Below, piece by piece: positions 1,256 to 18,316 of a DNA stretch of 47,776 bases. Where the stretch lies: contig DVAE01000001.1 of assembly GCA_014189675.1 (NCBI GenBank), positions 1 to 47,776 on the forward strand. Reading direction: 5' to 3'. The position numbers and the translations under genes are program-made. Numbering within the stretch: position 1 is the stretch's first letter; each line of letters starts with the position of its first letter. The notes under the pieces are model-generated. The model was not told where the DNA came from. It did not search any database and saw only the letters and a program-made list of their open reading frames with translations. Source of the stretch: Candidatus Undinarchaeales archaeon SRR5007147.bin71 (GTDB lineage Archaea; Undinarchaeota; Undinarchaeia; Undinarchaeales; Undinarchaeaceae).

Positions 1256-1637
1256 AGAACACAAAAGCAAAAAAGCTAAAGAGAAAAAAGGGAAGATTTG
1301 TGCAATTCTTCTTAGAGGGAGTGTTGGAGCAGGTCCTAAAATAAAGGAAACTCTTAAAACACTCAATCTAAATTCAGTCAATAATTGTGTTCTTTTGGAG
1401 GATACACCTTCTACGAAAGGTGCACTGAGGGTTTTACAGGGTTATACTACTTGGGGGGAAGCTGATGCATCTCTTGAAAAAGACATTCAAGCAGCTGGTA
1501 GGGAGAAAGTTCCCTACGGACTCCATCCTCCTCGAGGCGGTTTTGAAAGAAAAGGCAAGAGGAACTTGTTCACTAGCGGTGGATCTCTAGGTTACAGAGG
1601 ATCTGCTATAAATTCACTTGTCAGGAGGATGCTATGA
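1248..1637 (+). CDS. rpl30: 50S ribosomal protein uL30
   Basis: ILLRGSVGAGPKIKETLKTLNLNSVNNCVLLEDTPSTKG is an L30 ferredoxin-like fold signature. The start overlaps the uS5 stop, and operon position fits. Confidence 0.85.
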   Translation: MTEEHKSKKAKEKKGKICAILLRGSVGAGPKIKETLKTLNLNSVNNCVLLEDTPSTKGALRVLQGYTTWGEADASLEKDIQAAGREKVPYGLHPPRGGFERKGKRNLFTSGGSLGYRGSAINSLVRRML

Positions 1638-2089
1638 GTACCACAAATAAAAAAATACGAAAGTACCGTGGAAGGAAAACAGGAGGCGGCGCCAAGAAAA
1701 AAAGAAGAGGGGCAGGAAACCGTGGAGGTCGCGGAAACGCAGGTCGCTGGGATCACAAGAAGATGATTGCTCTTACAAGGGACTTGAAGAACAAAAAACT
1801 CAAGTCAATCAAAACAAAAATACCTGTTATTAATCTCAGTCAGCTTAATTCCATTGTAATAAAAGATGATTTAAAGGAGATAGATCTAAGCGGATACAAG
1901 GTCCTTGGCAAAGGAAGCTTGACAAAGGCTATATCAATAAAGGCCTCAAGCTTTTCAAAGTCAGCGGCTGAAAAAATAAAGGAAATCGGGGGAAATGCGG
2001 AAGGATCTGTGTCCGGTGAAGAGAGGACATCTGAGCCTGATGCTATAACAGAGGATGTCATTTCAGAAAATACTTCAGAATCTTCCTAG
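1634..2089 (+). CDS. rpl15: 50S ribosomal protein uL15 with acidic C-terminal tail
   Basis: The Gly/Arg-rich N-terminus (RGRKTGGGAKKKRRGAGNRGGRGNAG) is characteristic of L15. ATGA overlap with uL30. It precedes secY. Confidence 0.85.
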   Translation: MSTTNKKIRKYRGRKTGGGAKKKRRGAGNRGGRGNAGRWDHKKMIALTRDLKNKKLKSIKTKIPVINLSQLNSIVIKDDLKEIDLSGYKVLGKGSLTKAISIKASSFSKSAAEKIKEIGGNAEGSVSGEERTSEPDAITEDVISENTSESS

Positions 2090-3467
2090 TGTAGCAAAAC
2101 CGTCAAAGACGCTTAGCTTCAAACAGAAGCTTAAATGGACGGCTCTACCTCTTATTGCGTTTTTCATTCTTGGTGAGGTAGCACTTTTCGGCCTTGAACC
2201 TGGAGCTGCAGGCGGAGATATTTTTGGAAGCCTTAGAGCAATTCTTGCCACAAGCTTTGGAACAGTTCTTACATTAGGTATTGGTCCTCTAGTTATGGGA
2301 AGCATTATTCTTCAGCTTCTTAACGGAGCTGGTGTGTTCAAGTTTGACATGAGCACACCTGAAGGTAAGGCTACTTACCAAGGTGCTCAAAAGATACTTG
2401 CACTTGCATTTACTCTTTTTGAGGCGGCTGTTCTGGTTATTTCAGGTCAGATTGCTTCATCGGCTCTCCTGGCGGCATCAAAGGGATTATTCTTTGCTAA
2501 TTCAATTGTAATTGCGCAGATAGTCCTAGGGGGTATCATAATCATATATCTTGACGAAGTTGTCTCAAAATGGGGCTTCAGCTCTGGTATAAGTTTGTTC
2601 ATAGCTGGTGGAGTTTCTCTTGAAATAATTACAAGGTCACTTGATCCATTCAGGCTTGGACCAGGCCAGCCTATTAATGGGGCGATTCCTGCATTTATAT
2701 CCTCTTTAGTGGAGGGTTCTATACAATTTATTCGTGTCCATCCAAATGATATGCTCGCTCTTTTTGCAACTATAATTGTTTTTGTGGTTACAATGTATGC
2801 ACAGACTATGAAGGTTGAGATTCCAATATCTTATGGAAGAATTCGCGGTTTTGCCAGGCGTTATCCACTTCCTCTTGTATATGCCTCAAATATGCCTGTC
2901 ATCTTTATAGCTGCCCTCATTGCAAACTTGAATTTCTGGGTTGCTATGTTGAATAAAGCAGGAATAAACTTACTCGGATATTTTGATCCTGCAGGTGGGG
3001 CGCATGGATTCATTTTCTATATTAGTCCATACACTTCCTTTGCAAAAGATTTGATACAAACAAACGTTGGAGCTCTTGACCTTCTGCACGCTTTCACATA
3101 TTTCACTGTGGTAGTTCTAGGTTCTATCATGTTTTCAAAACTTTGGGTTGGTATTTCCGGCACAAATTCAAAAGCCCTTGCAGAAAAGCTTGTGAACTCC
3201 GGAATGCAAATTCCTGGTTTCCGAACTGATACAAGAGTAATAGAAAAAGTTCTGGATCGCTACATTCCTTCGTTGACAGTTCTCGGTGGAGCCTTTGTCG
3301 GTGCTCTTGCTGCTATTGCCGAATTTAGCGGGGCTCTAGGAGGGGGAACAGGAGTTCTTCTTACAGTAGGTATAATATATCAGCTCTATCAAGAAATAGC
3401 ATCTGAACAGCTAATGGAAATGCATCCTGCTATAAGGGGTTTCCTTGGTGAAGGAGGTTTAATATGA
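2055..3467 (+). CDS. secY: Preprotein translocase subunit SecY
   Basis: 470-aa polytopic membrane protein with a SecY-like N-terminus (LPSVAKPSKTLSFKQKLKWT) and about 10 TM segments. It follows uL15, the canonical position. Confidence 0.93.
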   Translation: MSFQKILQNLPSVAKPSKTLSFKQKLKWTALPLIAFFILGEVALFGLEPGAAGGDIFGSLRAILATSFGTVLTLGIGPLVMGSIILQLLNGAGVFKFDMSTPEGKATYQGAQKILALAFTLFEAAVLVISGQIASSALLAASKGLFFANSIVIAQIVLGGIIIIYLDEVVSKWGFSSGISLFIAGGVSLEIITRSLDPFRLGPGQPINGAIPAFISSLVEGSIQFIRVHPNDMLALFATIIVFVVTMYAQTMKVEIPISYGRIRGFARRYPLPLVYASNMPVIFIAALIANLNFWVAMLNKAGINLLGYFDPAGGAHGFIFYISPYTSFAKDLIQTNVGALDLLHAFTYFTVVVLGSIMFSKLWVGISGTNSKALAEKLVNSGMQIPGFRTDTRVIEKVLDRYIPSLTVLGGAFVGALAAIAEFSGALGGGTGVLLTVGIIYQLYQEIASEQLMEMHPAIRGFLGEGGLI

Positions 3468-4033
3468 CAGACAAAATAATCGCAATTACTGGTGTTCCCG
3501 GTTCCGGTAAGACAACAGTTCTCAAGAAAGCTATCAGCAAGGCTCCTAATGTATCTGTTGTAAATTTTGCAGAAGTGATGCTCAGTGTTGGAACTGAACT
3601 TGGTCTTGGCTCGGATCATGATGCAATAAGGACTCAGCCTCTTGATGTTCAGAGAGATCTCCAGAAGAAGGCCGCAGAAAAAATAGCAAAAGAATCTAAA
3701 GGTGTTACTATAGTTGATACTCATGCAACAATAAAGACCAGCTCTGGTTATCTGCCTGGTCTCCCTCAGTGGGTTCTTGATGCACTTAATCCATCAACAA
3801 TAGTTATTGTTGAATCACCTCCTAAAGACATAAATTTCAGAAGGAAAATGGATAAGTCAAGGAATCGTGATGACGAAGGGGAGGCAGGAATAGAATTACA
3901 TCAAAGCTTAAACCGAGCAATATCTCTTGCCTACGCTGCTTCATCAGGTGCCACTGTCAAGATAATCGCAAATGAGCAGAACAAGCTTGAAGAGGCTTCA
4001 AAAGATCTTCTGGACTTGTTTGGGGGAGTATAA
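3464..4033 (+). CDS. adkA: Archaeal-type adenylate kinase
   Basis: P-loop ITGVPGSGKTTV, 189 aa, and the canonical position after secY. Confidence 0.85.
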   Translation: MTDKIIAITGVPGSGKTTVLKKAISKAPNVSVVNFAEVMLSVGTELGLGSDHDAIRTQPLDVQRDLQKKAAEKIAKESKGVTIVDTHATIKTSSGYLPGLPQWVLDALNPSTIVIVESPPKDINFRRKMDKSRNRDDEGEAGIELHQSLNRAISLAYAASSGATVKIIANEQNKLEEASKDLLDLFGGV

Positions 4034-4489
4034 GTGAGCATTCTTGCAAGTCCTATGTATTTCATCATGGTGGTTTCTGCAGTCCTTACTTTGATTCTTT
4101 CCCTTGTAAATAAAGTTTTTACGGATCCTGATAGAATGAAAGAAATTCAGGCTACAATGAAGTCATATAATAAGGAATTAATGGCAGCCACTCGGGCTAA
4201 GGATAATGAAAAGCTTGAAAAGCTTCAGAAGGACAAGCCGAAAATTTCTCAAATGCAGCAGGAAATGATGAAAATGCAAAAACCCATTTTTTTGTCAATG
4301 ATTCCTTTCTTGGTGGTGTTCTATTTTCTCGGAAAGCTAGCTACGGGCCAGGGGTGGGGTGAATTCATACAACTTCCTTTCACAATAAGTCTTTTTAGCG
4401 TAGGTAATGACCTAACTTGGATTGGCTGGTATATGTGGTGTTCTCTTCCCTTTACAATGCTTTTCAGGAAGGCTCTAGGAATAAGCTAA
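4034..4489 (+). CDS. DUF106 / EMC3-TMCO1-like membrane protein (Oxa1-superfamily insertase-like)
   Basis: One TM segment, then a charged coiled region (KELMAATRAKDNEKLEKLQKD...QQEMMKMQ), then two more TM segments. It sits between adk and cmk, the conserved archaeal position. GTG start; an ATG 7 codons downstream is an alternative. Confidence 0.6.
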   Translation: MSILASPMYFIMVVSAVLTLILSLVNKVFTDPDRMKEIQATMKSYNKELMAATRAKDNEKLEKLQKDKPKISQMQQEMMKMQKPIFLSMIPFLVVFYFLGKLATGQGWGEFIQLPFTISLFSVGNDLTWIGWYMWCSLPFTMLFRKALGIS

Positions 4490-4490
4490 A

Positions 4491-5045
4491 ATGGTAGTAA
4501 TTATTGTAGGAGGTCCCCCTGGGGCAGGAACAACCACAGTCGCAAAAGCCTTGGCAGAGCATTTTGGCCTCTCTTATGTTTCTACAGGGGATATTTTCAG
4601 GCATATTGCAAAAGAGCGTGGTATAAGTCTTAATGAGCTTAATAAGACTGCAGAGAAGGAGGTTGACGAACTTGTTGACAAAGGAAGCAAAGAGGCAGGT
4701 CTTGCTGGAGATGTTGTAATTGATGGTGATATAGCAGCGTGGATGAATCCGGACGCAGATTTTAAACTTTATTTTTCCGCATCTCCCTTGACGCGGGCAA
4801 ATAGGATTTTTGAAGATTCAAACCCAAGAATTACTGAGGAACGTCAGACTCTGGAGGAAGTTAAACGAAATATTGAGCAACGACTTGGAGATGACAAGCG
4901 CCGATATATGGAATATTATGGAATAGATCTTGATAATCTCTCAATATATGACTTAGTTATTGATACTGAAGCTCTTTCGGTCGAAGACGTTATAAAGCGG
5001 GCAATAGAGTATATAGAGCGGGAAGGACTTGGTAAAGATGATTAA
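4491..5045 (+). CDS. cmk: Archaeal cytidylate kinase
   Basis: IVGGPPGAGTTTVAKALAEHFGLSYVSTGDIFR P-loop with an NMP-binding motif. Canonical position. Confidence 0.8.
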   Translation: MVVIIVGGPPGAGTTTVAKALAEHFGLSYVSTGDIFRHIAKERGISLNELNKTAEKEVDELVDKGSKEAGLAGDVVIDGDIAAWMNPDADFKLYFSASPLTRANRIFEDSNPRITEERQTLEEVKRNIEQRLGDDKRRYMEYYGIDLDNLSIYDLVIDTEALSVEDVIKRAIEYIEREGLGKDD

Positions 5046-5397
5046 GGTAGGAACAGTATGCACGAAGACTGCCGGAAGAGAAAACGGTAATATTTGCATT
5101 ATTCTGGAAAATATTGACGATATTTTTGTTATTGTTGCAGGACCAAGTGTACGGAAAAAAAGGTGCAATGTGAAACACCTTTCTCAACTTCCAAGAGAGC
5201 TTGTCGTTTCAAAAGGGGCTTCTCAGGCGGATGCTTCTAAACTTCTTGCAGATGCAGGTCTTGTGGAAGAGTCTGAAGTGTCGGCTCCTAAAAAGAAGGC
5301 AGACGCAAAAACACCCGCTAAACCTGTAAAAAAATCGGAGAAGAAAAAGGATTCTAAAAAAGCGCTAAGCAAAAAGACTCTTCCCGCGAAAAAATAG
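5038..5397 (+). CDS. rpl14e: 50S ribosomal protein eL14 with Lys/Ala/Pro-rich C-terminal tail
   Basis: KOW-like N-terminus (IKVGTVCTKTAGRENGNICIIL...KKRCNVKHL). It sits between cmk and cbf5. The ATG at 5038 is preferred over the TTG at 5029. Confidence 0.75.
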   Translation: MIKVGTVCTKTAGRENGNICIILENIDDIFVIVAGPSVRKKRCNVKHLSQLPRELVVSKGASQADASKLLADAGLVEESEVSAPKKKADAKTPAKPVKKSEKKKDSKKALSKKTLPAKK

Positions 5398-5403
5398 GTA
5401 GTT

Positions 5404-6384
5404 ATGAATCCTGGAAAGTTGCCCTTTGAAAAGGAGAGAGAATTATTAATTCGTCGTGAGGAGGAAACTAATCCGGATTTTGGATGTCTTCCAAACGAAA
5501 GAAGTATTGAAGACCTTCTTAAAGGCTGCATAATAAATATTGATAAGCCGGCAGGTCCTACTTCTGCGCAGGTTAGTGATTTTGTCAAGGATATCCTGGG
5601 AATACGGAAATGCGGGCACTCAGGAACTCTTGATCCTGGAGTTACTGGTGTTTTCCCAGTTGGTGTTGGAAGCGGAACTAAGGCACTCCATTCTCTTCTT
5701 ATAGCTGGGAAGGAATACCTTACTCTTATGCGTTTGCACGAAGAACTTTCTGAAAGGAAGATCAAAAAAGTTCTTAAAAAATTCACCACAAAAATATACC
5801 AGACTCCTCCAATAAAATCAAATGTCAAAAGAGTTCTCAGAGTAAGAGAAGTGTATTATACTAAACTTATTGAGTCAGAGGGAAAGGATGCACTTTTTAC
5901 TGTTGGCTCTGAAGCTGGAACTTATATCCGTAGACTTTGCCACGACATTGGAGAAGTAACTGGCTCAGGTGCTCATATGCAGCAGCTCAGGAGAACTCGT
6001 GTGGCAAACTTTAATGAAGATACGCTTTTTACATTGCAGCAACTCAAGGATGCCTTTGTTTTCTGGAAAGAAGGGGATGAAGGTGGGCTTAGAAAAGCAT
6101 TACTTCCTATGGAATCTGCATTATCACATCTTCCAAAAGTTACAATAAGTGATTCTGCAGTTCCCTCAGTAACAACTGGGGCGCAGCTGGCTGTTCCTGG
6201 TATACTTAGTGTAGAGTCAGGGATATCTCCTGGAGATTTAATTGCAGTTTTAACCCAAAAAGGTGAGGGAGTTCTCTATGGTTCAGCTCTTGTTTCTTCT
6301 GAAGATATGATTTCAATGAAGAAGGGGCTTGCAGTCAAAACAGAAAGAGTTCTTATGAATCCATCAATATATTCGCCAAAATGA
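5404..6384 (+). CDS. cbf5: H/ACA RNP pseudouridine synthase Cbf5 (TruB family, with PUA domain)
   Basis: GCIINIDKPAGPTSAQV...GHSGTLDPGVTGV is the catalytic Asp motif. There is a C-terminal PUA-like region. Confidence 0.9.
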   Translation: MNPGKLPFEKERELLIRREEETNPDFGCLPNERSIEDLLKGCIINIDKPAGPTSAQVSDFVKDILGIRKCGHSGTLDPGVTGVFPVGVGSGTKALHSLLIAGKEYLTLMRLHEELSERKIKKVLKKFTTKIYQTPPIKSNVKRVLRVREVYYTKLIESEGKDALFTVGSEAGTYIRRLCHDIGEVTGSGAHMQQLRRTRVANFNEDTLFTLQQLKDAFVFWKEGDEGGLRKALLPMESALSHLPKVTISDSAVPSVTTGAQLAVPGILSVESGISPGDLIAVLTQKGEGVLYGSALVSSEDMISMKKGLAVKTERVLMNPSIYSPK

Positions 6385-7061
6385 GCACTGAAAAACAGCA
6401 GGAGCATTATTATAAGGAAAAGACAAAGATTCCTCTTCAGCTCGGAGAAGTTTCGGCTTTAATCAAGGGCAGGGAACTAAAGTTATTTTCTTCGTCTCCT
6501 GTATTTTCCTGGAGGCAAATTGACAAAGGCAGTCTTATTATGGCTGAGAATATGCTTATTCCGGAAGGGCAGGGAAAGCTCCTGGATATGGGTTGTGGTT
6601 ATGGAGTTCTCGGTATTTTTGCAGCTCTTCAGAATCCTCTACTCGAGGTGCAGATGGTAGATTCAAGCGAGCGTGCCGTTTATCTGTCCAAGAAAAACAT
6701 TCGTAAATATGGTCTTGGTTCTCGCGTCACAGTTGTTCAGGGAGATTTGTTTGAAAAGATTGAGGATAAAGATTTTGATACTATTGTCTCAAATCCGCCA
6801 TATTCTGCTGGGAAGGATGTGGTTGAACTCTTGATTGCGGATTCTCCAGCTTATTTGGCTGAAGGGGGTACGCTTCAAATTGTCGGCCGGCATTCAAAAG
6901 GCGGAAAAATGTATCGTGACCACATTAAAGAGGCATTTACTTATGAGTTTGAGTTTGGAAAACAGAGCGGATTTCGTATATATCTCGGGAGTAAAAAAGA
7001 TATACCTGAACTAAGAGAGGATAAAGAGTCTATACTGGAGTCTTATTCCAAGGAGGAATAA
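6381..7061 (+). CDS. Class I SAM-dependent methyltransferase (RsmC/MJ0882-like small-domain MTase)
   Basis: LDMGCGYGVLG is SAM motif I and SNPPY is motif IV. ATGA overlap with cbf5. Confidence 0.75.
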   Translation: MSTEKQQEHYYKEKTKIPLQLGEVSALIKGRELKLFSSSPVFSWRQIDKGSLIMAENMLIPEGQGKLLDMGCGYGVLGIFAALQNPLLEVQMVDSSERAVYLSKKNIRKYGLGSRVTVVQGDLFEKIEDKDFDTIVSNPPYSAGKDVVELLIADSPAYLAEGGTLQIVGRHSKGGKMYRDHIKEAFTYEFEFGKQSGFRIYLGSKKDIPELREDKESILESYSKEE

Positions 7062-7083: not shown

Positions 7084-7167
7084 GCCGAGATCGCATAATC
7101 TGGTATTGCGCTACCCTGGAAAGGTAGTTTCCTTCGGGATGTGTGAGTTCAAATCTCACTCTCGGCG
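7084..7167 (+). tRNA. tRNA-Ser (anticodon GGA)
   Basis: Hand-folded. Acceptor GCCGAGA/TCTCGGC. Anticodon stem CTACC/GGTAG with loop CTGGAAA. Long variable arm. T-arm GTGAG-TTCAAAT-CTCAC. Discriminator G. No encoded CCA. Confidence 0.85.
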
Positions 7168-7229: not shown

Positions 7230-7628
7230 ATGAAATTACTGCATCACGCTCTTGCCGGTCTCGTTTTAGGTTGGGCATTCGGCTACGATCTCTGGTTGAG
7301 CATGCTGTTTTCTATAGGTCCTGATATTCCCCAGGCTCTGATTCTTTACCCCTTACTGGCCTACAAACACAAAAGAATAATTCTTCCTCTTGATGGTGAC
7401 TGGAAAAACTTCAGTAAAAGTGCCTGGAGTCATCTATACTTCGCCCCTCATAGTCTGCTTTTTGTAGCTATTCTCAGCTTTTCTGATTTCTCAGCATTCT
7501 TTATTGGACTCTATTCTCTCCATATACTAGTAGATATTCCAACGCATACTGGTGAATGGTCTATTCGCTTACTGTGGCCTGCTTCCTGGAAACTTGAGGG
7601 CTTTTTTGACGCCTGGAAACGCTCTTGA
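7230..7628 (+). CDS. Small polytopic membrane protein, possibly DUF457-like metal-dependent hydrolase
   Basis: 132 aa with 3-4 TM segments and conserved-looking His/Asp residues (HHAL, GPDIPQ, HILVDIPTH). Family assignment is tentative. Confidence 0.4.
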   Translation: MKLLHHALAGLVLGWAFGYDLWLSMLFSIGPDIPQALILYPLLAYKHKRIILPLDGDWKNFSKSAWSHLYFAPHSLLFVAILSFSDFSAFFIGLYSLHILVDIPTHTGEWSIRLLWPASWKLEGFFDAWKRS

Positions 7629-7632
7629 TGTA

Positions 7633-8193
7633 TTATTTCTTATTTTTCTCAACAAGTTCTTTTATTCTATCAAGAACTGCTTGCTCTGGCTTTTCAATCT
7701 GATCTCCAAAATTCCAGTACTTTCCGCCACGATAAATAAGAGGCTCTTTTTCTCTTGATATTATTTCGACAACTTCTCCGACCATCATAGTGTGGTCTCC
7801 TAACTCTACCTCTTGCATAAGTTTGCACTCTGCTTGCATTACGGCATCTTCCAGCATAAGTAGATCTATTTTACTTGCATTATAAAACTTGACTCCAAGT
7901 TCCTTTAGTACAGCTATTTTGTCTACTTCTTTACCTGTACTTCCTCCAGATATGCTTGAAAGCACATTTTGGTCAAAGGCTGCCAGATGCACTCCAAATT
8001 CCCGTGTTTCTCTAATATTTTCGAGTGTCGCTTTGTTAGGTCCTATACAGACTGCCATAAGGCTTGGTGCATAAGAAACATGGTGTGTCCATTCTGCCGC
8101 CATTATATTGTTTCCATGTGCTCCCTTGCTAGTTATGAGTCCCACATTCGTTACAAATTTTCTTGTTCGTTCGTCGTCCCACTTAAGATCCAT
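7633..8193 (-). CDS. Flavin reductase-like (FMN-binding split-barrel) protein
   Basis: VGLITSKGAHGNNIMAAEWTHHVSYAPSLMAVCIG is typical of the flavin reductase-like domain. The start is set at MDLKWDDE (8193), about 24 nt from a TATTTATATA element. Confidence 0.7.
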   Translation of the reverse strand: MDLKWDDERTRKFVTNVGLITSKGAHGNNIMAAEWTHHVSYAPSLMAVCIGPNKATLENIRETREFGVHLAAFDQNVLSSISGGSTGKEVDKIAVLKELGVKFYNASKIDLLMLEDAVMQAECKLMQEVELGDHTMMVGEVVEIISREKEPLIYRGGKYWNFGDQIEKPEQAVLDRIKELVEKNKK

Positions 8194-8286
8194 AATTTTC
8201 CTTAAGCTTCGGTATTTATATACTGCGTGCATATAGCAAATAGGTGGCATTGGCTAAATAGGTCTAAAATATTCCACAGCTTCGTA

Positions 8287-8839: not shown

Positions 8840-9001
8840 ATGTTGAAAGAAATCAGAGACAAATTGCAGAGACTTAACAAAACAAAGACCTGTCCTGTGT
8901 GTAATTCGGGTGATATTACATACGGTTCTAAAGGTAAACCGCATTTATGCAATGATTGTGGTGTAGATATTCAGGATAATATTTCTTCTAAAACAAGGTG
9001 A
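8840..9001 (+). CDS. 53-aa zinc-ribbon mini-protein
   Basis: Hand-translated: MLKEIRDKLQRLNKTKTCPVCNSGDITYGSKGKPHLCNDCGVDIQDNISSKTR*. It carries a CPxC...CxxC pair. It is below the ORF-track size cutoff and starts 28 nt after the VRR-NUC stop on the same strand. Confidence 0.45.
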   Translation: MLKEIRDKLQRLNKTKTCPVCNSGDITYGSKGKPHLCNDCGVDIQDNISSKTR

Positions 9002-9028
9002 TTTTTGGGGTTTTCTATATAGAAAAAG

Positions 9029-9036
9029 TATATAAA
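9029..9036 (+). promoter_or_regulatory. TATA-box-like element with purine-rich BRE-like upstream flank
   Basis: AGAAAAAG-TATATAAA sits about 25-34 nt upstream of the first structured-RNA unit. This is the spacing expected for an archaeal promoter. Confidence 0.4.
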
Positions 9037-9056
9037 CTCATATACATTAAAGATTG

Positions 9057-9260
9057 TGCTAGGAGGTGAAGGCGGCGCAAACCTTCGGGGGTGCGCTTTG
9101 AAGTGTTTCGAAAGGGACACGGATGCTGCTGTAAAAAGCGGGTCTTCGCTTTATGGCTCCCATAAAATGCTGGGAGGTGAAGGCAGTACAATTCTTCGGA
9201 CTTGTGCTTTGAAATATCTTGAAAGAGATATGGATGCTGCTGTAAAAAGCGGGTCTTCAC
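9057..9260 (+). ncRNA. Tandem duplicated structured RNA candidate (two units, 111-nt period), unclassified
   Basis: Each unit has a closing stem (GUGAAG/CUUCGC at 9066-9149; GUGAAG/CUUCAC at 9177-9260), a 9-bp hairpin capped by UUCG, and a 7-bp hairpin capped by GAAA. Differences between the units in the stems are compensatory or wobble-compatible. The junction sequences are identical. The canonical tetraloops occur only on the + strand. Confidence 0.5.
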
Positions 9261-9270
9261 AACACAGCAC

Positions 9271-10014
9271 TTAAAGTTCTGATTGCTTAGCAACCTTTTC
9301 TGCCTCTAGTCTGGCTTTTTCAGCATCTCCTAGATAGTAATTTTTTATAGGTTTCAAGTCCTTGTCAAGTTCATAAACGAGAGGGATTCCGGTTGGTATA
9401 TTTAACTTCGTTATTTCTTCGTCTGATATCTTATCCAAATATTTTACAAGAGCTCTGAGGCTGTTTCCGTGAGCGCAGATTATCAATTTCCGTTCTTCTT
9501 TTAATGCCGGAGCAATTTGCGCATTCCAATAAGGTAGCACTCTCCCAACAACGTCTTCCAAACTTTCTGTGCTTGGAATCTCAGTTTTTTCAAGATCTGC
9601 GTAAAGTTCGTCATTTTTTGGATGCCTCTCATCATCTTCGCTCAGCGAAGGCGGTCGAACATCATAACTTCTCCTCCACAGGAAAACTTTCTCTTCTCCT
9701 TCCGTTCTTGCTGTTTCTGCTTTGTTAAGTCCTTGGAGAGCTCCGTAGTGGCGTTCGTTTAGCCTCCAGCTCCTGTGAACAGGTATTTCGGAAAGCTCCA
9801 TCTCCTTTAGAACTATGTCAAGAGTTTCTGTTGAACGTTTTAAAACTGAAGTATAGGCTTCATCAAACACATAATTTCCTTCTGATAAAAGCTTGGCAGA
9901 ATCTCTGGCTTCTTCTTCACCTTTCTCAGTCAGTCCTATATCCGTCCATCCTGTAAACCTGTTTTCAAGATTCCATACACTTTCTCCGTGCCTTAGAAGT
10001 ACTAGTTTTATCAT
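9271..10014 (-). CDS. gpmA: 2,3-bisphosphoglycerate-dependent phosphoglycerate mutase
   Basis: [22 protein letters not shown] is the histidine phosphatase RHGE motif. The full-length 247 aa is dPGM-like. Confidence 0.9.
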
Positions 10015-10015
10015 A

Positions 10016-10702
10016 TTATATTTGGAAAAGGAGCCCTAGGTTATAAGTCAAAGCAGTCGCGAATATACCAATTGCTACCATTTCAAAACCTCCAACATAC
10101 CATTTTTTAACAGTAAATTTACTTTTTGCAGCTCCTCCTGCAAAAAGAACTGCTGCTGTGAAAGAAACTGCATATGGAAGTGCTTGTGCGGATAGAGAGA
10201 ATATCATAAAAGGTATTACCGGTATTATTGCACCCAAAACAAAGGCGAGTCCTGTGAATCCTGCCGCCTTCATCGGATTCTTATTACTGACCTTTCCAAA
10301 ACCAAGCTCTTCTTCCATCATTACTCTGAGCCATACTTCTTCATCAGATGTTATTACCTCAACAACTCTTTCTAAGTCCTTCCCTTTGAATCCCTTCTTC
10401 GCATAAATGTCACGTATTTCCTGTCTCTCTACATCAGGCATATCACGTATTTCTTGCTTTTCTCGCTCAAGCTCCTTGTCATACAGTTCAGAATTGGATT
10501 TAGTTGACAAGTAGTTGCTGGACATCATAGATATGGCTCCTGCGAGAACTTCTGCTATCCCAGCTATCAATACAATGTTGCTATGTGCGACGGCACCTGC
10601 TACCCCTGCAACAAGGGCTAGGTTTGAAATAAGGCCATCATTGAGTCCAAGTACGGCGTCTGATATGTATTTTTTCTCATCAATGAAATGCTTTTCTTCC
10701 AT
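10016..10702 (-). CDS. VIT1/CCC1-family iron/manganese transporter
   Basis: [20 protein letters not shown], a cytoplasmic acidic helical insert, and C-terminal TM segments give the VIT family architecture. Confidence 0.85.
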
Positions 10703-11455: not shown

Positions 11456-12874
11456 TTACCCCTTCAGAACTCCAAGAGGAATCAATCTTGCCACAATTTT
11501 CCCAATTCCAAGTTCGTGCGATACTTTGACGACTTCGTCAATATCCTTGTAAGCACCGGGAGCTTCCTCTGAAACACCTCTCCAGCTTGCTGATCTAACA
11601 AGTATTCCTTTTCGTTTCAAGTCTTTCTGAACTTTTTCTCCTGTATATAGTTTATTTGCCTGATGTCTGCTCATAAGACGTCCGGCTCCGTGTGGTGTGC
11701 TCCCAAAAGTTTCCTTCATCCCTTCCTCAGTCCCTACAAGTACATAGGAAGCAGTTCCCATGCTTCCAGGTATCAGAATAGGCTGTCCGACATCCCTATA
11801 TATTTCAGGTATCTCTTTCTGGCCCGGACCAAAGGCTCTTGTTGCACCTTTCCTATGTACATAGACTTTTTTCATTTTGCCGTCTATTTCATGCTCCTCA
11901 AGCTTTGCCATGTTGTGGCATACGTCGTACATCAGTTTCAAATCAGAATCAGGGAATACTTTCTTGAATGAATTTCTTGTTTCATATGTCATAACTTGCC
12001 TGTTACACCATCCAAAATTTGCTGCCGCACTCATAGCTTTATAATAATCATCAGCGATCTCAGTTCCAAGAGGCGCGTATATCAGCTCCTTATCTTCAAG
12101 ACTTTTGAATATTTTAGGCTGTTCTGTTTCCATTCTTCTCAAATAGTCTGTACAGACTTGGTGACCGAGACCTCTTGAGCCTGAGTGTATAATTATAAGG
12201 ACTTGGCCTTCTTCCTTTATTCCAAATTTTTCCGCCGTGCTTTTATCCAGTATCTTTTCAACAGCCTGAATCTCTATAAAGTGGTTTCCGGCTCCTAATG
12301 AGCCAACCTGTTTTCGTCCGCGTTTTTTCGCACGGTCTGAAACTTTTGAAGAGTCCGCCTGCGGCATCCTTCCATTTTCTTCACAACGTTCCTTGTCTTC
12401 CTCTGTTGCGTATCCCTTCTTAATTGCCCAGTCTATTCCTGTATCAAGAAGTTCTTCAAGCTCACTAGTTTCCAGCCTTATTTTGGATTCAGATCCTATT
12501 CCTGTATGAATATTTTCATAGAGAACATTGAGAATCTCCTCTAACTTTTCCTTTACTTCATCCACTCCTAGATTGGAGCTTAATATCCGTACTCCGCAGT
12601 TTATGTCGTATCCAATGCCTCCGGGACTGATAATTCCCCTTTCTGCGTCAAAGGCGGCAACACCTCCTATTGGAAAGCCGTAGCCTTGGTGGGCGTCCGG
12701 CATCATTATTGCATGCTTGCAAATTCCTGGAAGTTTTGTCATGTTAATCCCCTGTTCAAGTGCTCTGTCCTTTTCTATATCTTCCATCAGCTTTTCTGAA
12801 GCGAAGACTTTAAGGGGGACTTTCATATCCCCCTTTTTCTCAAATACATAGGTATTTTCTGATTCTTTTTTCAT
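11456..12874 (-). CDS. rtcB: RNA-splicing ligase RtcB
   Basis: MPDAHQGYGFPIGGV, GGIGYDINCG, SLGAGNHFIE, HSGSRGLGHQ and HGAGR are RtcB signatures. The start MKKESENT overlaps the archease stop (ATGA). Confidence 0.95.
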   Translation of the reverse strand: MKKESENTYVFEKKGDMKVPLKVFASEKLMEDIEKDRALEQGINMTKLPGICKHAIMMPDAHQGYGFPIGGVAAFDAERGIISPGGIGYDINCGVRILSSNLGVDEVKEKLEEILNVLYENIHTGIGSESKIRLETSELEELLDTGIDWAIKKGYATEEDKERCEENGRMPQADSSKVSDRAKKRGRKQVGSLGAGNHFIEIQAVEKILDKSTAEKFGIKEEGQVLIIIHSGSRGLGHQVCTDYLRRMETEQPKIFKSLEDKELIYAPLGTEIADDYYKAMSAAANFGWCNRQVMTYETRNSFKKVFPDSDLKLMYDVCHNMAKLEEHEIDGKMKKVYVHRKGATRAFGPGQKEIPEIYRDVGQPILIPGSMGTASYVLVGTEEGMKETFGSTPHGAGRLMSRHQANKLYTGEKVQKDLKRKGILVRSASWRGVSEEAPGAYKDIDEVVKVSHELGIGKIVARLIPLGVLKG

Positions 12875-13305
12875 ATGTCTACAACCACCTGCACTATGCA
12901 CTTTTCTGGTCTGTCGTCTACTATCATTTCACTATATGTCATGGATTTTATATTTCCTGAGACTAGATACTTTTTATCTCCTCTCTTATGAAGGTCCCCA
13001 GCTGCAAGAGCCTTCAAGGTGTAGCCTGTCGCTTCCTTATTTATTTTAAGCTCCTTTATTTCATTAAGGAGGAAATTATCAGTATCTAGGAGGAAAAGGA
13101 GCTCATCTAGGTATTCATAAAGAAGTTCAGGCAAGCCATTTCCTTGCACTTCCACGGTTTTTTCAACAATTGACTGAACCTTTTCCGTGTCAGTTAGGAT
13201 TCCAAACATCGCAAGAGCTGCGTTTGAGAAAGCTTCCTCAATAGTTTTTCCAAATGCCCTGAATTTCGCGTCTGCTGTATGTTCAAGATATTCGTATTTT
13301 TTCAT
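12871..13305 (-). CDS. Archease (RtcB activator)
   Basis: YEYLEHTADAKFRAFG at the N-terminus and 144 aa in length. It is translationally coupled to rtcB. Confidence 0.9.
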   Translation of the reverse strand: MKKYEYLEHTADAKFRAFGKTIEEAFSNAALAMFGILTDTEKVQSIVEKTVEVQGNGLPELLYEYLDELLFLLDTDNFLLNEIKELKINKEATGYTLKALAAGDLHKRGDKKYLVSGNIKSMTYSEMIVDDRPEKCIVQVVVDI

Positions 13306-13326
13306 TAAAAAAGGTAGATTGAATAG

Positions 13327-14079
13327 CTAAATAAGTCCTTCGTAGCCTTTCTTCTCAATCTCTTCTGCAAGTTCCGGACCACCAGATTTTACAATTTTCC
13401 CCTTGTTCATAACAATAACTCTATCCGGTTTTATATAGTTCAGAATGCGCTGGTAGTGTGTAATTATTAAGACTCCCATATTATCACTTCTTATTTTGTT
13501 AATGCCTGATGCTACTGCTTTTAGTGCATCGACATCAAGGCCTGAGTCAGTTTCATCTAAAATTGCTATTTCAGGCTTTAACACTGCCATTTGGAGTATT
13601 TCAGTAATTTTTTTCTCTCCACCAGAAAACCCCTCATTCAAATATCTGGATAAGAATGATTCATCAATATTGAGCTCATCCGCGTTTTCTTTAATTTCAT
13701 CGTAGAATTTAAGAATATCAATTTTTTCATTTTTTTCAAGTCTCGACTGCATCGCCGTTCTTAGGAAATTTGCAACGGTAACTCCTGTGATTGCAGAAGG
13801 GTACTGAAAGGACAGAAAAATTCCTAATTTTGAGCGCTTGTCTGGGCTTAGCTCAAGAATGTTCTTGCCTTTGTATGTCACTTCTCCAGAATCAACCTTG
13901 TAATTTGGATTGCCCATAATAATGTTAGCAAGCGTGCTTTTACCAGAGCCATTAGGTCCCATCAAAGCTACAACTTCCCCTTTGCCAATCTCTAGATTGA
14001 CACTTTTCAATATTTTTTCATTATCTACACTAACTTCTAGGTTTTTTACTACAAGTTTGTCTTTAGATAGGTCTTCCAT
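13327..14079 (-). CDS. sufC: Fe-S cluster assembly ATPase SufC
   Basis: GPNGSGKSTL is Walker A, LNEGFSGGEKK is the ABC signature, and AILDETDSGLD is Walker B. Confidence 0.95.
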   Translation of the reverse strand: MEDLSKDKLVVKNLEVSVDNEKILKSVNLEIGKGEVVALMGPNGSGKSTLANIIMGNPNYKVDSGEVTYKGKNILELSPDKRSKLGIFLSFQYPSAITGVTVANFLRTAMQSRLEKNEKIDILKFYDEIKENADELNIDESFLSRYLNEGFSGGEKKITEILQMAVLKPEIAILDETDSGLDVDALKAVASGINKIRSDNMGVLIITHYQRILNYIKPDRVIVMNKGKIVKSGGPELAEEIEKKGYEGLI

Positions 14080-14084
14080 TTTAA

Positions 14085-14486
14085 CTATTCCTTTACCTCT
14101 ATACTTCCTTCTTCTTCACTTGAGTCTAGGGCACACTTTACTGTTACTAGACCTAGTATTGCACATTTTGTTCTTACGGGACCGACACTTATCTTAAGCA
14201 TATCTAGAATGTCTGGACGCTCAAGTGCTTTAATTTCCTCAACAGATAGGTTCTTAATCTTTTCCGTGAGCATGGATGAAGCCGCCTGGCTTATTGCACA
14301 GCCTTTTCCTTCAAACATTATATCTCTTAAGATATTATTGTCAATTTTAAGTGTATAAACAAGCTTATCTCCGCAGAGGGGGTTTTCTCCTGTGAAAGTG
14401 ATATCTGCCTTCTCAAGCCTGCCATAATTACGTGGATTCTTATAATGTTCCATTATATTCTCCCGATATATCGTGTCAGTGTTCAC
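14085..14486 (-). CDS. sufU: SufU/IscU-type Fe-S scaffold / sulfur acceptor
   Basis: The three conserved Cys are present (NPLCGD, GKGCAIS, RTKCA). The N-terminus is YRENIMEHYKNPRN. Confidence 0.85.
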   Translation of the reverse strand: MNTDTIYRENIMEHYKNPRNYGRLEKADITFTGENPLCGDKLVYTLKIDNNILRDIMFEGKGCAISQAASSMLTEKIKNLSVEEIKALERPDILDMLKISVGPVRTKCAILGLVTVKCALDSSEEEGSIEVKE

Positions 14487-15706
14487 TTAAACAAGTCCCG
14501 TGCTTTCTTTAAAGCTTCCACAAAAATATCAATTTCTTCTTTTGTATTGTAAAGATAAAAACTTGCCCTTGCACTTGCGTCTATTCCCAATAATTTCATG
14601 AGAGGCTGTGTACAATGGTGCCCTCCTCGTATCGCTACTCCTTCTTCGTCCACAAGTGCCGATATATCGTGCGGATGTATTCCTTCCATAGTGAAAGAAA
14701 TTATCCCAGCCAGTTTCTCTAAAGTAGGTGTGTACAGCCTCAGATCTTCAAAGTTTTCCAGCTCTTCAAGTGCATATTTAGTAAGTTCTTTTTCGTGCTG
14801 GTATATTTTATTCATACCTACCTTATTTAGGTAGTCAATAGCCTTTCCAAAACCAATACCTTGAGCAATATTTGCTGTTCCTGCTTCAAACTTCCATGGA
14901 CTTACATTCCATTTTGCTGAATCATATTCAACTTCAGAAATCATCCCTCCTCCAAAATTGAAGGGTTCCAGTTCTTTCATAAGTTCTTCTTTGCCATACA
15001 GAGCTCCTATCCCAGTGGGTCCGAGCATTTTATGGCCTGAAAATGCAAAAAAGTCACAGTCAATATCTTTTACATCTATTTCCATATGTGGCGCACTTTG
15101 GGCTCCGTCAACAATCATAAGGGCATTGTTATCATGGGCTATTTTTCCAAGTGTCTTAACATCATTTATAGTTCCAAGCGAGTTCGACACATGTACAGCA
15201 GAAACAAGTTTTGTTTTGCTGCTCATAAGTTCTGCAGCTTGCTCCAAATTTAATGCATAATCATCATTTATCTCAATGAATTTCATCTGTGCCCCTGTTT
15301 TATTACAAATTTGCTGCCATGGGAGTAAATTACTGTGGTGTTCCATGCGCGTTATAACAATTTCATCATTTTTCTTTAGATTGTTTAATCCCCAGGAATA
15401 TGCGAGTAAATTAAGGGATTCTGTGGTATTTTTGGTAAATGCAAGTTCAGCCATTGAGTTGGCTCCTATAAAGTTAGCAACTTTCCGGTGGGCGCCTTCA
15501 TAGAGCTCAGATGCTTCCTCACTTAAAGTAGAGGTTCCTCTGTGTACGTTAGCATTTGAATTCGTATAAAAATCCGAGATGGAATCAATAACACTCTGAG
15601 GCTTTTGGGAAGTTGAGGCATTATCAAAATACACCAATGCATTTCCATTTATCTCCCTCTTTAAAATCGGAAAATCTTTCCGTATCTTTTCAGTGTTTAA
15701 GCTCAT
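14483..15706 (-). CDS. sufS: Cysteine desulfurase SufS (class V aminotransferase, group II)
   Basis: FSGHKMLGPTGIG carries the PLP Lys and RGGHHCTQPL carries the active-site Cys. 407 aa. Confidence 0.95.
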   Translation of the reverse strand: MSLNTEKIRKDFPILKREINGNALVYFDNASTSQKPQSVIDSISDFYTNSNANVHRGTSTLSEEASELYEGAHRKVANFIGANSMAELAFTKNTTESLNLLAYSWGLNNLKKNDEIVITRMEHHSNLLPWQQICNKTGAQMKFIEINDDYALNLEQAAELMSSKTKLVSAVHVSNSLGTINDVKTLGKIAHDNNALMIVDGAQSAPHMEIDVKDIDCDFFAFSGHKMLGPTGIGALYGKEELMKELEPFNFGGGMISEVEYDSAKWNVSPWKFEAGTANIAQGIGFGKAIDYLNKVGMNKIYQHEKELTKYALEELENFEDLRLYTPTLEKLAGIISFTMEGIHPHDISALVDEEGVAIRGGHHCTQPLMKLLGIDASARASFYLYNTKEEIDIFVEALKKARDLFK

Positions 15707-16886
15707 TTATTCCTCCCACTCTTTCAAGAATTATTTTCTTCAAGTCGGCCTTTACTACCTCTACTGGTATTTTCTGAATAAAGGGCTCAAAAAATCCTTC
15801 CACGAGTTTTCTCTTTGCAGTAATTTCATCCATTCCGCGTGTCATCATATAAAATAACTTACTCTTGTCAATCTGTCCAATTGCAGTTCCATGGCTGCAT
15901 TTTACATCGTTGTTGTCAATTTCTAGATTGGGGACAGCCGAAGCTTCCGCATCACTACTTAACAGTAATGTTTCCTCGTTTTGATATCCGTCTGAATTTG
16001 GTGCCCCTTTTTCAATCCGCACAAGGCCACGGTATATTGCCTTTGATTTTCCATCTAAGGCGCCTTTGACATCTAAATATGATTTTGTATCCTTTGCTTT
16101 ATGATGTGCCTCCAGATAAAAATCAAAATTCTGCTCACCTCTTCCAAAGAACATACTTCTGCTACTTACATTAGAACCACGGCCTTCAAGGTTTGTAATA
16201 AGGGTAACCCCTCCAAACCTCGCTCCAATATCACATGCTATCCAATCGATAGTGGCATCTTTTTGTACATGGGCAATTTTCTTTGAGAAGTAATTTGTCT
16301 TTTCACTAAGATTTTGGAATTCACCATATTGAATTCTTGCTGAATCTTGAACATGAATCTCAATATTACTTGTTTTGAATTGCGGGTTCCCGGTGCTCTT
16401 CTGGAGAACTGTCATCTTGCTTCTAGGCTCTGCAACAAGTAAATTATGCTCAGCAATTGCAATTGCTTTTGCATCACTTGTAATATTAACAGGAGTTTTA
16501 ACTTCGCTTCCCTCTGTAATTTTTACAAACAGTCCTTCACTCCAAACAGCCTGGTGAAGTGCTTCAATTTTATTTACTGGGCTTGTCTTGAATAAGTAGT
16601 CTTTCAAATCCTCGTCTTTAACCGCATCTGAAAGCTTCTTAACAATAATTTTATCGTCTGCAGTGCTTCTTATCTCTGAAGGTAGGCTCCAAAGGTTTTT
16701 CGGAACTGCAATTTCCAAATCAAGCGTATCAGTGTTTAGATTTATCCCCAGCCCGTAACTGAAGTTCGGGTCTTCAAATTTTTCAAATTGCTTCAATCCA
16801 TCTAGCCGTTTCTTTAGTAGCCATTTTGGCTCGTCTCTGCCTGCAGAGAATACCCTAATTGCTTCAGTACTCAATTCAGAAGACAT
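15690..16886 (-). CDS. sufD: Fe-S cluster assembly protein SufD
   Basis: SufB/D beta-helix family (NEETLLLSSDAEASAVPNLEIDNNDVKCSHGTAIGQID). It sits between sufB and sufS. Confidence 0.85.
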   Translation of the reverse strand: MSSELSTEAIRVFSAGRDEPKWLLKKRLDGLKQFEKFEDPNFSYGLGINLNTDTLDLEIAVPKNLWSLPSEIRSTADDKIIVKKLSDAVKDEDLKDYLFKTSPVNKIEALHQAVWSEGLFVKITEGSEVKTPVNITSDAKAIAIAEHNLLVAEPRSKMTVLQKSTGNPQFKTSNIEIHVQDSARIQYGEFQNLSEKTNYFSKKIAHVQKDATIDWIACDIGARFGGVTLITNLEGRGSNVSSRSMFFGRGEQNFDFYLEAHHKAKDTKSYLDVKGALDGKSKAIYRGLVRIEKGAPNSDGYQNEETLLLSSDAEASAVPNLEIDNNDVKCSHGTAIGQIDKSKLFYMMTRGMDEITAKRKLVEGFFEPFIQKIPVEVVKADLKKIILERVGGINELKH

Positions 16887-16888
16887 AT

Positions 16889-18316
16889 TTAACCTATAGA
16901 GCCCTCCATCTCCATTTCAATAAGTCGATTTAATTCAACAGCGTATTCCAGGGGCAGTTCTTTCACTATTGGTTCGATAAATCCTGAAACAATCATTTTT
17001 TTTGCCTCTTCTTCGTTGAGCCCACGGGACATTAAGTAAAATATATCATCTGAGCTTATTTTTCCTACACTTGCTTCATGTGAAACGTCAACTGCGTCTT
17101 CATTTATTTTCATGTAAGGATATGTGTTTGAAACTGAGATGTCATCAACTAAAAGGGCGTCACACTGTACACTTGCTTTGCTATCTACAGCTCCCTTATT
17201 AATCCCAAGGTAGCCTCTGTAAGAAGTTACTCCCCCTCCTTTGCTTATACTCTTGGCTGTGATTGTTGAGCTTGTGTTCGGGGCAAGGTGGTACATCTTA
17301 CTTCCTGTGTCCTGATTCTGTTCCCCAGAAGCAAATGCAATTCCAAGGTAATCTGAGCGAGCACCTCTTCCAATGAGCAGACTTGATGGATAAAGCATTG
17401 TTACACAGCTTCCCATATTACCATTAACCCATTCAAGTGTTCCGTTCTTTTCAACAAGCCCTCTTTTGGTGTTTAGGTTGAATGTGGTTTTGCTCCAATT
17501 CTCCACGGAGCTATATCTTCCCTTAGCACCTTCATTGATGAATATTTCAACTCCACCTGCATGTAGGGAATATTCGTTATATTTTGGAGCTGAACAGCCC
17601 TCAATGTAATGGAATTCTGAATTTTTGTCAGCAATTAATAGTGTATGTTCAAATTGTCCTCCAGCTTCCGCATTCATTCTGAAGTAGGCCTGTAGAGGCA
17701 TGTCTACTTTCACACCTTCCGGAATATAGAGGAAAGTTCCTCCTGACCAGACCGCTCCATGCAGAGCTGCGAATTTATGCAGACTTGGTGGGATGCATTT
17801 AGTCATAAAGTGTTTTTTAACAAGTTCAGGATATTCCTGTACGCCTACATCCATATCTAAGAATACGACACCTTGGGTTTCCCACTCCTTCTTTAAATTG
17901 TGATATACAACATCACTTTCATACTGAGCTCCTACTCCTGCGAGAGATTTTTGTTCAGCTTCAGGTATTCCAAGTTTTTCAAATGTATTCTTGATATCGT
18001 CAGGAACCTCATCCCATGTTTTTGTATTTCGTTCAGCGTCGGGTGACATATAGAAATGAATCTTATTCAAATCGAGTTTCTCCAGTCTTGGGCCCCATGT
18101 TGGCATTGGCATTTTCTCAAAAATGTTCAGGCATTTTAATCTGTGTTCAAGCATCCAATCTGGTTCGTTCTTCTCTGAAGAAATTAATCTTACGACATCT
18201 TCACTCAGTCCGGGTTCAGGTTTTAAGCGATGCCGTTCCTCGTTTGCATGATCAAATCTCTCCCTATTAATTTTAGTGGCGAGTTTCTGCTTTTCCAGTA
18301 TTTGTGAATCAGTCAT
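16889..18316 (-). CDS. sufB: Fe-S cluster assembly protein SufB
   Basis: 475 aa. Typical SufB sequences are GVQYESDVVYHNLK-like, FRMNAEAGGQFEHTLLIAD and CDALLVDDISVSNTYPYM. Confidence 0.95.
   Translation of the reverse strand: MTDSQILEKQKLATKINRERFDHANEERHRLKPEPGLSEDVVRLISSEKNEPDWMLEHRLKCLNIFEKMPMPTWGPRLEKLDLNKIHFYMSPDAERNTKTWDEVPDDIKNTFEKLGIPEAEQKSLAGVGAQYESDVVYHNLKKEWETQGVVFLDMDVGVQEYPELVKKHFMTKCIPPSLHKFAALHGAVWSGGTFLYIPEGVKVDMPLQAYFRMNAEAGGQFEHTLLIADKNSEFHYIEGCSAPKYNEYSLHAGGVEIFINEGAKGRYSSVENWSKTTFNLNTKRGLVEKNGTLEWVNGNMGSCVTMLYPSSLLIGRGARSDYLGIAFASGEQNQDTGSKMYHLAPNTSSTITAKSISKGGGVTSYRGYLGINKGAVDSKASVQCDALLVDDISVSNTYPYMKINEDAVDVSHEASVGKISSDDIFYLMSRGLNEEEAKKMIVSGFIEPIVKELPLEYAVELNRLIEMEMEGSIG

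Follow-up and report, generated by a model that had tools for sequence, protein, structure and literature searches.

What occupies the gap between a small Zn-ribbon gene and the convergent gpmA gene of an uncultured archaeon: an RNA gene, a regulatory element, or a short protein? The stretch of DNA in question, referred to here as the window, comprises 47,776 nt from Candidatus Undinarchaeales archaeon SRR5007147.bin71 (assembly GCA_014189675.1, contig DVAE01000001.1, positions 1 to 47,776 of the forward strand). An earlier note, made from the letters alone, had proposed that positions 9057-9260 hold two tandem structured RNA units of a class it did not recognize. Here we examined this array and its homologs computationally. 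The core of the proposal, an unclassified, structured, non-coding, tandem RNA on the + strand, passed the checks against Rfam, of helix conservation, and of coding potential, and we consider a functional structured RNA on the + strand very likely.

The repeated module and its conservation

A core of 93 nt occurs at 9057-9149 and again at 9168-9260 of the window, with an exact offset of 111 nt (9057 to 9168). A 23-mer within the array, GGATGCTGCTGTAAAAAGCGGGT, is present twice in the window, where shuffles predict none. When each unit was folded alone on the + strand, U1 and U2 gave an identical minimum free energy (MFE) fold, with energies of -41.0 kcal/mol for U1 and -30.2 kcal/mol for U2 (z = -5.40 and -4.42, 0 of 200 shuffles as good). 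The alignment and the MFE folds thus bear out the exact 111-nt period and the shared fold that had been described. The reverse complements are unremarkable (z = -1.00 for U1 and -1.43 for U2), in agreement with the + strand orientation proposed for the fold. The two cores differ at 18 positions, 16 of which fall within the 34 positions of the hairpins originally named A and B (hypergeometric P = 5e-7), so that the differences are indeed concentrated in stems. The four double compensatory changes claimed for these hairpins are also present, at columns 21-38, 26-33, 47-64, and 49-62 of alignment A3.

The complete module has five helices: an outer helix P0, the closing stem P1, P2 with a UUCG cap, P3 with a GAAA cap, and P4 with a GUAAAA hexaloop (Table 1). 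P4 stacks straight onto P1, and the base of P3 is formed by three tandem purine-purine pairs. P1 (GUGAAGGC/GUCUUCRC) is an invariant helix of 8 bp, and P4 (CUGCU-GUAAAA-AGCGG) is a fourth hairpin inside GGAUGCUGCUGUAAAAAGCGGGU. P0 (GCUR/YRGC) extends the module to approximately 102 nt, which leaves linkers of just 8-9 nt; the linker between U2 copies in relatives is CUAUAAAA, 8 nt in length. The fold as first drawn therefore captured the tandem structured unit but not its extent, since P0 and P4 had been missed. What had been described as invariant single-stranded junctions is instead largely paired, as P1 and P4, and P4 covaries in relatives.

Other structural candidates were tried and rejected. 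A hairpin in the spacer between U1 and U2 (UUUAUGG/CCAUAAA) is broken in relatives by G to A and U to G changes, and the same changes fit P0. A bulge-helix-bulge splicing motif at P0/P1 does not agree with the loop found there, which is a 4x4 internal loop rather than 3-nt bulges around 4 bp. A pseudoknot between L4 (AAAA) and J2/3 (UUU) is unsupported, given a U to C change in L067 U2 that has no compensating change. The resemblance of the P4 hexaloop GUAAAA to the 23S GTPase-center hairpin (GUAAUA) is unsupported by any Rfam large-subunit rRNA match.

Homologs of the array were collected by two routes. A scan of metagenomes with a degenerate pattern returned seven loci, five of which (L067-L071) are the same locus in relatives, with the Zn-ribbon open reading frame (ORF) upstream and gpmA downstream of the array. 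A walk through gpmA homologs added contigs L103/L104, L109/L110, and L117-L119. The locus is carried by approximately ten contigs of marine metagenomes, which represent four or five closely related lineages. The order of the array is always one U1-type module followed by U2-type modules, or U1-(U2)n. Two modules are found in the window, L069, L103, and L109/L110; three in L067, L104, and L117; at least three in L118; and at least four in L068. The amplified type in relatives is U2, with one to at least three copies (L067, L068, L104, L117, L118). Since the two U2 copies of L117 are non-identical (GGAUAUUGCU versus GGAUGCUGCU), the multiplicity of modules is real and not an assembler artefact. 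In L001, L068, L070, L105-L108, L111, L112, L118, and L119 the contig ends at or inside the array. These breaks fit identical tandem U2 copies that are longer than the assembler k-mer, and the real copy numbers, including that of the window, may be higher than assembled.

The final alignment (A5) consists of nine distinct 102-nt modules. The 33 pairs of the fold are standard in 98.3% of cells, as compared to 35-52% when the partners are slid by 1-3 columns, and eight of the pairs are changed on both sides. None of 500 column shuffles reaches the observed covariation score, and RNAalifold recovers the same five helices when given no prior structure. G.U is used in at least one module at 12 of the 33 pairs; on the - strand these would be A.C, which fixes the strand as +. 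In P4, a C-G pair becomes U-A in the U1 modules of L068 and L117, and C-G becomes U-G in L067 U1 and L117 U2a, with wobble changes at two adjacent pairs. P0 joins a conserved UGCUR upstream with YRGCA downstream, and it varies between G-C in U2 and A-U in U1, and between U-G in the window and U-A in relatives. All seven substitutions between the U1 modules of the window and L067 lie in pairs and keep the pairing. Preservation of the helices in homologs, on which the RNA interpretation had been made to depend, is therefore found, and with compensatory changes.

Modules of the window and of the most distant lineage (L103/L067) are 93-94% identical, while the gpmA DNA of the same lineage pair is 80% identical overall and 64% identical at third codon positions. 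The GC content of the modules is 44-55%, compared to 39.7% for the window. The RNA-only locus is under clear purifying selection.

Two open frames run across both modules of the window, one of 72 aa on the + strand (9056-9274) and one of 92 aa on the - strand (9015-9293). In the sense frame of orthologous U1 modules, 6/7, 7/10, and 5/9 of the changed codons are non-synonymous, with similar values in the antisense frame. In neither frame do synonymous changes outnumber non-synonymous ones, except in one single-codon comparison. U2 copies follow one another with a period of 110 nt, and in arrays with three or four modules the sense frame consequently shifts and runs into stops. Codon-like conservation of the 72-aa ORF, the pattern that would have told against an RNA, is thus absent. 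There is no family for either ORF in Pfam, NCBIfam, or PADLOC, and a six-frame translated query against a set of 5.8 billion proteins, aimed at arrays miscalled as genes, gave no match. In public assemblies, ORFs of 34-145 aa have been called on either strand of the array, at L104:4802-5068, L109:4745-5182, L117:3355-3792, L002:1355-1459, L118:3413-3517, and L119:1941-2048. These calls are probably spurious.

Comparison with known RNA families

A search of the whole window with Rfam 15 at gathering thresholds found only four tRNAs, all elsewhere. At E<=10, the region 8950-9350 gave two junk matches outside or at the edges of the units, CRISPR-DR22 with 16 bits and sR52 with 11 bits. The units are therefore without a match at either threshold, and their unclassified status holds. 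ARAGORN predicted 0 tRNA or tmRNA genes in 8900-9400, and there is no RF00005 match in that region. As for box C/D small RNAs, neither UGAUGA nor CUGA occurs in 9057-9269, and the units have no Rfam C/D match. An H/ACA small RNA would be expected to show a large internal pocket, which is lacking here; U1 is without an ACA after P1, and the ACA of U2 falls inside the P0 region. No RNA of this kind was described in the literature searched. None of the membership tests gave a clear positive, save for the k-turn sequence signature described below. The RNA belongs to no described family, and its fold is new within the orphan structured small RNAs.

Some likeness exists to the tRNA cloverleaf and to tRNA-like modules such as those of the bacterial Y-RNA-like YrlA. 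The module shares with these a four-way junction, a 5-bp 3' hairpin directly on the closing stem, and 5 nt in the position of the "variable loop". In bacterial rsr-yrlA-rtcBA loci RtcB lies close to Y-RNA-like genes, and an RtcB gene is also found near the array, whose modules are approximately 100 nt long. However, the module is recognized neither by ARAGORN nor by the tRNA and Y-RNA models of Rfam. It lacks an anticodon-type loop, a consensus T-loop or D-loop, and a CCA context, and a Pfam scan of 26 neighboring ORFs of the window (up to approximately 20.2 kb) did not turn up a Ro/TROVE gene.

The base of P3 contains a k-turn-like element. One strand reads UUU-G-A-A and the other G-G-A, which gives G.A, A.G, and A.G pairs after a 3-nt loop. 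The six purines (G, A, A and G, G, A) do not vary among the nine distinct modules, while position 2 of the loop (L2) varies, with U to C in L067 U2. The module resembles known k-turns in that a 3-nt pyrimidine loop precedes G.A and A.G, and its third pair is A.G, as in Kt-7. The canonical C helix of a k-turn is absent, with position -1b (column 40) paired within P2 and position -1n (U68) leading into P4. The strands leaving the element enter P2 and P4, and the element therefore has the form of a junction. In k-junctions such as those of the thiamine pyrophosphate (TPP) riboswitch and DUF-3268, the next helix begins on the non-bulged strand two nt after A1n, as P4 does here (PMC10573300). The described k-junction is a three-way junction with its extra helix on the non-bulged strand (PMC10573300). 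P4 takes the place of this extra helix, but P1 is inserted between P2 and P4, so that the element, known here from sequence, sits inside a four-way junction rather than a two-helix turn or a three-way junction. In the k-junction study there was no significant folding upon L7Ae addition, and the extra helix was argued to block L7Ae sterically (PMC10573300). The earlier suggestion of a k-turn is thus upheld in its tandem G.A signature and not in its topology; by analogy with the k-junction, binding of the module by L7Ae is doubtful. A sharp bend by which P3 and its GAAA cap fold back onto the body of the module is plausible.

The suggestion that each unit starts with an anti-16S motif also stands in part. 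The motif GGAGGUGA is invariant in U2, where its GGAG lies in the 4x4 internal loop opposite AACA or AAAA. Its counterpart in U1 modules is GGAGG, GGGAG, or GGGGG and is largely paired with the 3' strand, and no start codon follows the motif. We therefore rejected GGAGGUGA as a conserved anti-16S or Shine-Dalgarno mimic and as a feature of the family. Some internal operon genes of the window use GGAGG-type ribosome-binding sites, given which U2 may have a ribosome-related role.

A proposed protein-binding RNA and its alternatives

The array occupies the entire intergenic space between the Zn-ribbon ORF and gpmA in a compact genome. The elements resembling a B recognition element (BRE) and a TATA box that had been noted upstream, AGAAAAAG-TATATAAA, are present at 9021-9036 and conserved in relatives. 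Part of this promoter, GTATATAAA, also precedes gene 20241 of the same window, 16-24 nt ahead of its start codon. Transcription is predicted to start at approximately 9053-9061, about the first paired base or 5' edge of U1. Downstream, L067 has a T5 run 5 nt past P0, and the candidate terminator in the window lies inside gpmA, so the transcription units of the array and gpmA probably overlap at their 3' ends. An independent transcription unit is the probable arrangement.

The mechanism that we favor begins with transcription of the array as a single precursor from its own BRE/TATA promoter. The exposed A/U linkers would then be cut to give stable modules of approximately 100 nt, with P0-P1 protecting them; we hold such processing into monomers to have somewhat less than an even chance. 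The near-invariant core, consisting of P1, the G.A junction, and P4 with its loop, would serve as the recognition surface for a protein partner, while P2 and P3 would be mere struts, free to covary. Several identical cores on one transcript could then form a multivalent or dosage-tunable ribonucleoprotein scaffold or decoy. CsrB/RsmZ-type sequestering RNAs and polycistronic small-RNA precursors similarly carry several structured units per transcript, with copy numbers that vary between strains. However, the CsrB/RsmZ type is bacterial and uses simple GGA hairpins, whereas the units here are complex, with five helices, and their partner is hypothetical. The 53-aa Zn-ribbon protein encoded upstream is a possible partner. 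A scaffold or decoy as the mode of action is a tentative proposal. For identity and mechanism taken together, a lineage-specific non-coding RNA gene acting as a multivalent protein-binding RNA, we estimate a probability of about 0.5.

Several points weigh against this reading. All homologs come from one narrow clade, with gpmA 83-100% identical, and the covariance model covered the retrieved loci. Most of the double changes trace to one old split between U1 and U2 and represent few independent events, and P1, which never varies, has no covariation in its support. The strand, ends, and processing of the RNA are all inferred from sequence. In addition, the partner protein is hypothetical, and L7Ae, which would be the obvious archaeal choice, is a doubtful candidate.

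One alternative is that the modules are ligand-sensing aptamers. As tandem aptamers, their folding would decide between termination and antisense read-through into the convergent gpmA-VIT1 operon. The compact fold, invariant core, variable peripheral stems, and k-turn-like bend with a GNRA cap are all consistent with this, and tandem aptamers have precedent. In the glycine riboswitch and the tandem glnA/glutamine-II aptamers, repeated folds are adjacent, with conserved cores and covarying peripheral stems. The last module also lies 1 nt from the gpmA stop, with candidate T-run terminators inside gpmA, and VIT1 and the SUF genes are metal-related neighbors. However, the array is not placed as a cis-regulatory 5' leader: gpmA, which comes next, is convergent, no gene lies downstream on the array's own strand, and an expression platform is not recognizable. 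There are few conserved unpaired nucleotides to form a pocket, the copy number of two to at least four with identical U2 copies is unusual for riboswitches, Rfam 15 has no riboswitch match, and no ligand is suggested by any data. We consider this control of read-through improbable. The broader possibility would be a new class of aptamer that senses a metal ion or small molecule, with the modules forming an array of variable valency that acts in trans or gates antisense read-through into VIT1-gpmA; this is unlikely, if slightly less so.

The array could also be a passive cis element, either a bidirectional terminator or insulator or a 3'-end stabilizer between the Zn-ribbon gene and gpmA, in the manner of bacterial repetitive extragenic palindromic (REP) and bacterial interspersed mosaic element (BIME) arrays. 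Its position between convergent genes and its variable copy number agree with such a role, as does a T5 run that each module carries on the - strand as the complement of GUAAAAAG, located 25 nt beyond the stop codon of gpmA. Against this, pairing is specific to the + strand through the many G.U pairs. The array is preceded by a conserved promoter of its own, and the Zn-ribbon gene has a separate likely terminator further upstream. The junction and loop sequences are conserved far beyond the needs of a terminator. The element is confined to a single locus and not dispersed; the covariance model found no further module copies elsewhere in the window or in any retrieved locus. We consider a passive element as improbable as control of read-through.

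A self-cleaving ribozyme that cuts at the linker, with monomers possibly ligated or circularized by the RtcB and Archease encoded 2 kb away (11456-13305), would account for the head-to-tail multimer, the short linkers, and the conserved junction core. However, there is no Rfam ribozyme match at E<=10, and the module has no conserved internal loops like those of the hairpin or twister-sister four-way ribozymes. RtcB and Archease are also a housekeeping archaeal tRNA ligase pair, encoded on the opposite strand with three unrelated genes in between. This reading is very unlikely, and a new self-cleaving or RtcB-circularized RNA module is even less likely than a new aptamer class.

An antitoxin array like those of type III toxin-antitoxin systems, processed by and neutralizing a neighboring nuclease, has scarcely any standing. 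It would share tandem near-identical RNA repeats of variable number in one precursor with the ToxI arrays, and a VRR-NUC nuclease gene lies 250 nt upstream. ToxI-type repeats are about one third of the length of the module, which is thus approximately three times longer and also different in architecture. No + strand toxin gene follows the array, the VRR-NUC homologs of other DPANN archaea (45-54% identity) lack this RNA in their vicinity, and the VRR-NUC protein has no PADLOC match. Just as implausible is a small repeat protein from the 72-aa (+) or 92-aa (-) ORF, for which the two open frames and the annotation of such ORFs in relatives are outweighed by the dominance of non-synonymous changes, the frameshift imposed by the 110-nt period, the empty family and protein searches, and substitutions that follow base pairs.

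DPANN genomes are tiny and densely packed, and their non-coding RNAs are almost wholly uncharacterized. An RNA-only locus of 270-490 nt that is clearly maintained by purifying selection in a genome of this kind probably does not sit idle. The multi-module design, with one founder, an amplifiable second module, and a k-turn-like element in a four-way junction, is unusual among archaeal small RNAs. Should marine metatranscriptomes contain the RNA in abundance, it would offer a way into the biology of this uncultured lineage and would add one more natural case of a k-turn set within a higher-order junction. If the modules are aptamers, DPANN archaea would thereby have yielded their first such class. 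At present, the protein-binding RNA gene that we propose has the standing of a good orphan-RNA candidate, as catalogued by comparative genomics, and is not yet a mechanistic discovery.

Distribution and genomic surroundings

Table 1 Features of the RNA locus and its flanks in the window (+, forward strand; -, reverse strand).
Feature	Position	Strand	Comment
Zn-ribbon ORF, 53 aa, four cysteines	8840-9001	+	Immediately upstream of the array; syntenic in every lineage with the RNA
T5-GGGG-T4 run	9002-9014	+	Directly 3' of the Zn-ribbon ORF stop; likely archaeal oligo-T terminator; similar in relatives
BRE-like AGAAAAAG	9021-9028	+	Conserved in L067, L068, L071
TATA box TATATAAA	9029-9036	+	Conserved in L067, L068, L071
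Module U1, 102 nt	9057-9158	+	MFE fold, RNAalifold consensus, pair counts, covariance-model score 110.8 bits
U1 P0	9058-9061 / 9154-9157	+	
U1 P1	9066-9073 / 9142-9149	+	
U1 P2	9074-9097	+	UUCG loop 9084-9087
U1 J2/3	9098-9102	+	
U1 P3	9103-9120	+	GAAA loop 9110-9113
U1 J3/4	9121-9125	+	
U1 P4	9126-9141	+	GUAAAA loop 9131-9136
k-turn-like element, P3 base, U1	9097-9125	+	Loop U9097-U9099; G9100.A9123, A9101.G9122, A9102.G9121; putative geometry, after the k-turn consensus
Linker CCCAUAAAA, 9 nt, A/U-rich	9159-9167	+	Between U1 and U2; candidate processing site
Module U2, 102 nt	9168-9269	+	MFE fold, covariance model, RNAalifold, pair counts
U2 P0	9168-9172 / 9265-9269	+	
U2 4x4 internal loop	9173-9176 / 9261-9264	+	GGAG / AACA
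U2 P1	9177-9184 / 9253-9260	+	
U2 P2	9185-9208	+	
U2 P3	9214-9231	+	
U2 P4	9237-9252	+	
k-turn-like element, U2	9208-9236	+	
gpmA, 2,3-bisphosphoglycerate-dependent phosphoglycerate mutase	9271-10014	-	Convergent; stop 9271-9273, 1 nt from the P0 end of the last module
First downstream T4 run	9296-9299	+	Inside the 3' end of gpmA; candidate terminator of the RNA gene

The distribution of the RNA amounts to roughly one genus-level marine DPANN lineage. Among gpmA homologs there is a tight archaeal group with 83-100% identity, followed by a drop to approximately 70% and mostly bacterial proteins. In GTDB species representatives, the pattern TGAAN{12,28}GGATNNNNNNGTAAAANNNNNNGTCTTC gave 30 matches, all bacterial and all chance, and the family was not found with that pattern. 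In viral contigs there was no match to the exact 23-mer, and the two gapped patterns had 32 and 31, all of them chance according to nhmmer; a phage BLAST gave no match. The VRR-NUC homologs of the upstream neighbor carry the names Candidatus Woesearchaeota or Nanoarchaeota, which marks the organism as a Woesearchaeota-like marine DPANN archaeon. The more distant ones (45-54% identity; L113-L116, L120-L123) have no shared neighborhood and no credible covariance-model match nearby; the best score, 14.7 bits, falls in a coding region and lacks P3 and the G.A signature.

Two other matches of the metagenome scan were set aside. L072 is a chance match. In L066, a wetland-sediment contig, positions 2388-2441 (-) contain GCTTTGAA, 12 nt, and GGATGCTGCTGTAAAAAGCGG, identical to the part of the module from J2/3 to P4. 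We rejected this contig as a member, as the match has neither P2 nor P3, scores 22.6 bits, and is antisense within a plausible bacterial secreted-protein ORF (151 aa with a signal peptide, L066 2170-2625). The coincidence is far above the chance expectation for the pattern, and we offer no explanation for it.

The Zn-ribbon ORF has weak similarity to the TFIIB ribbon, and its substitutions are protein-like across lineages. On the other side of the array, VIT1 and gpmA form an operon (9271-10702, -). The nearest gpmA proteins outside the lineage, at approximately 70% identity, are mostly bacterial where named, which suggests that this DPANN archaeon may have acquired its cofactor-dependent phosphoglycerate mutase horizontally. 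Upstream, the VRR-NUC ORF as listed (GTG at 8227) overlaps the start of a divergent flavin-reductase gene (7633-8250, -) at 8227-8250. Its true start is probably further downstream, database versions being 169-174 aa in length. A 132-aa ORF and the flavin-reductase gene (7230-8250) separate VRR-NUC from the tRNA/methyltransferase region in the window, as they do in the L109 and L117 lineages; both are absent from L103/L104, where the difference is a small indel beside the tRNA gene (7084-7167). Further out, 42-7061 contains the end of a ribosomal-protein cluster (L18, S5, L30, L15, SecY, Adk, EMC3-like, Cmk, Cbf5, and a methyltransferase), and 11456-18316 contains RtcB-Archease followed by the SUF Fe-S operon (SufC, IscU-like, SufS, SufD, and SufB).

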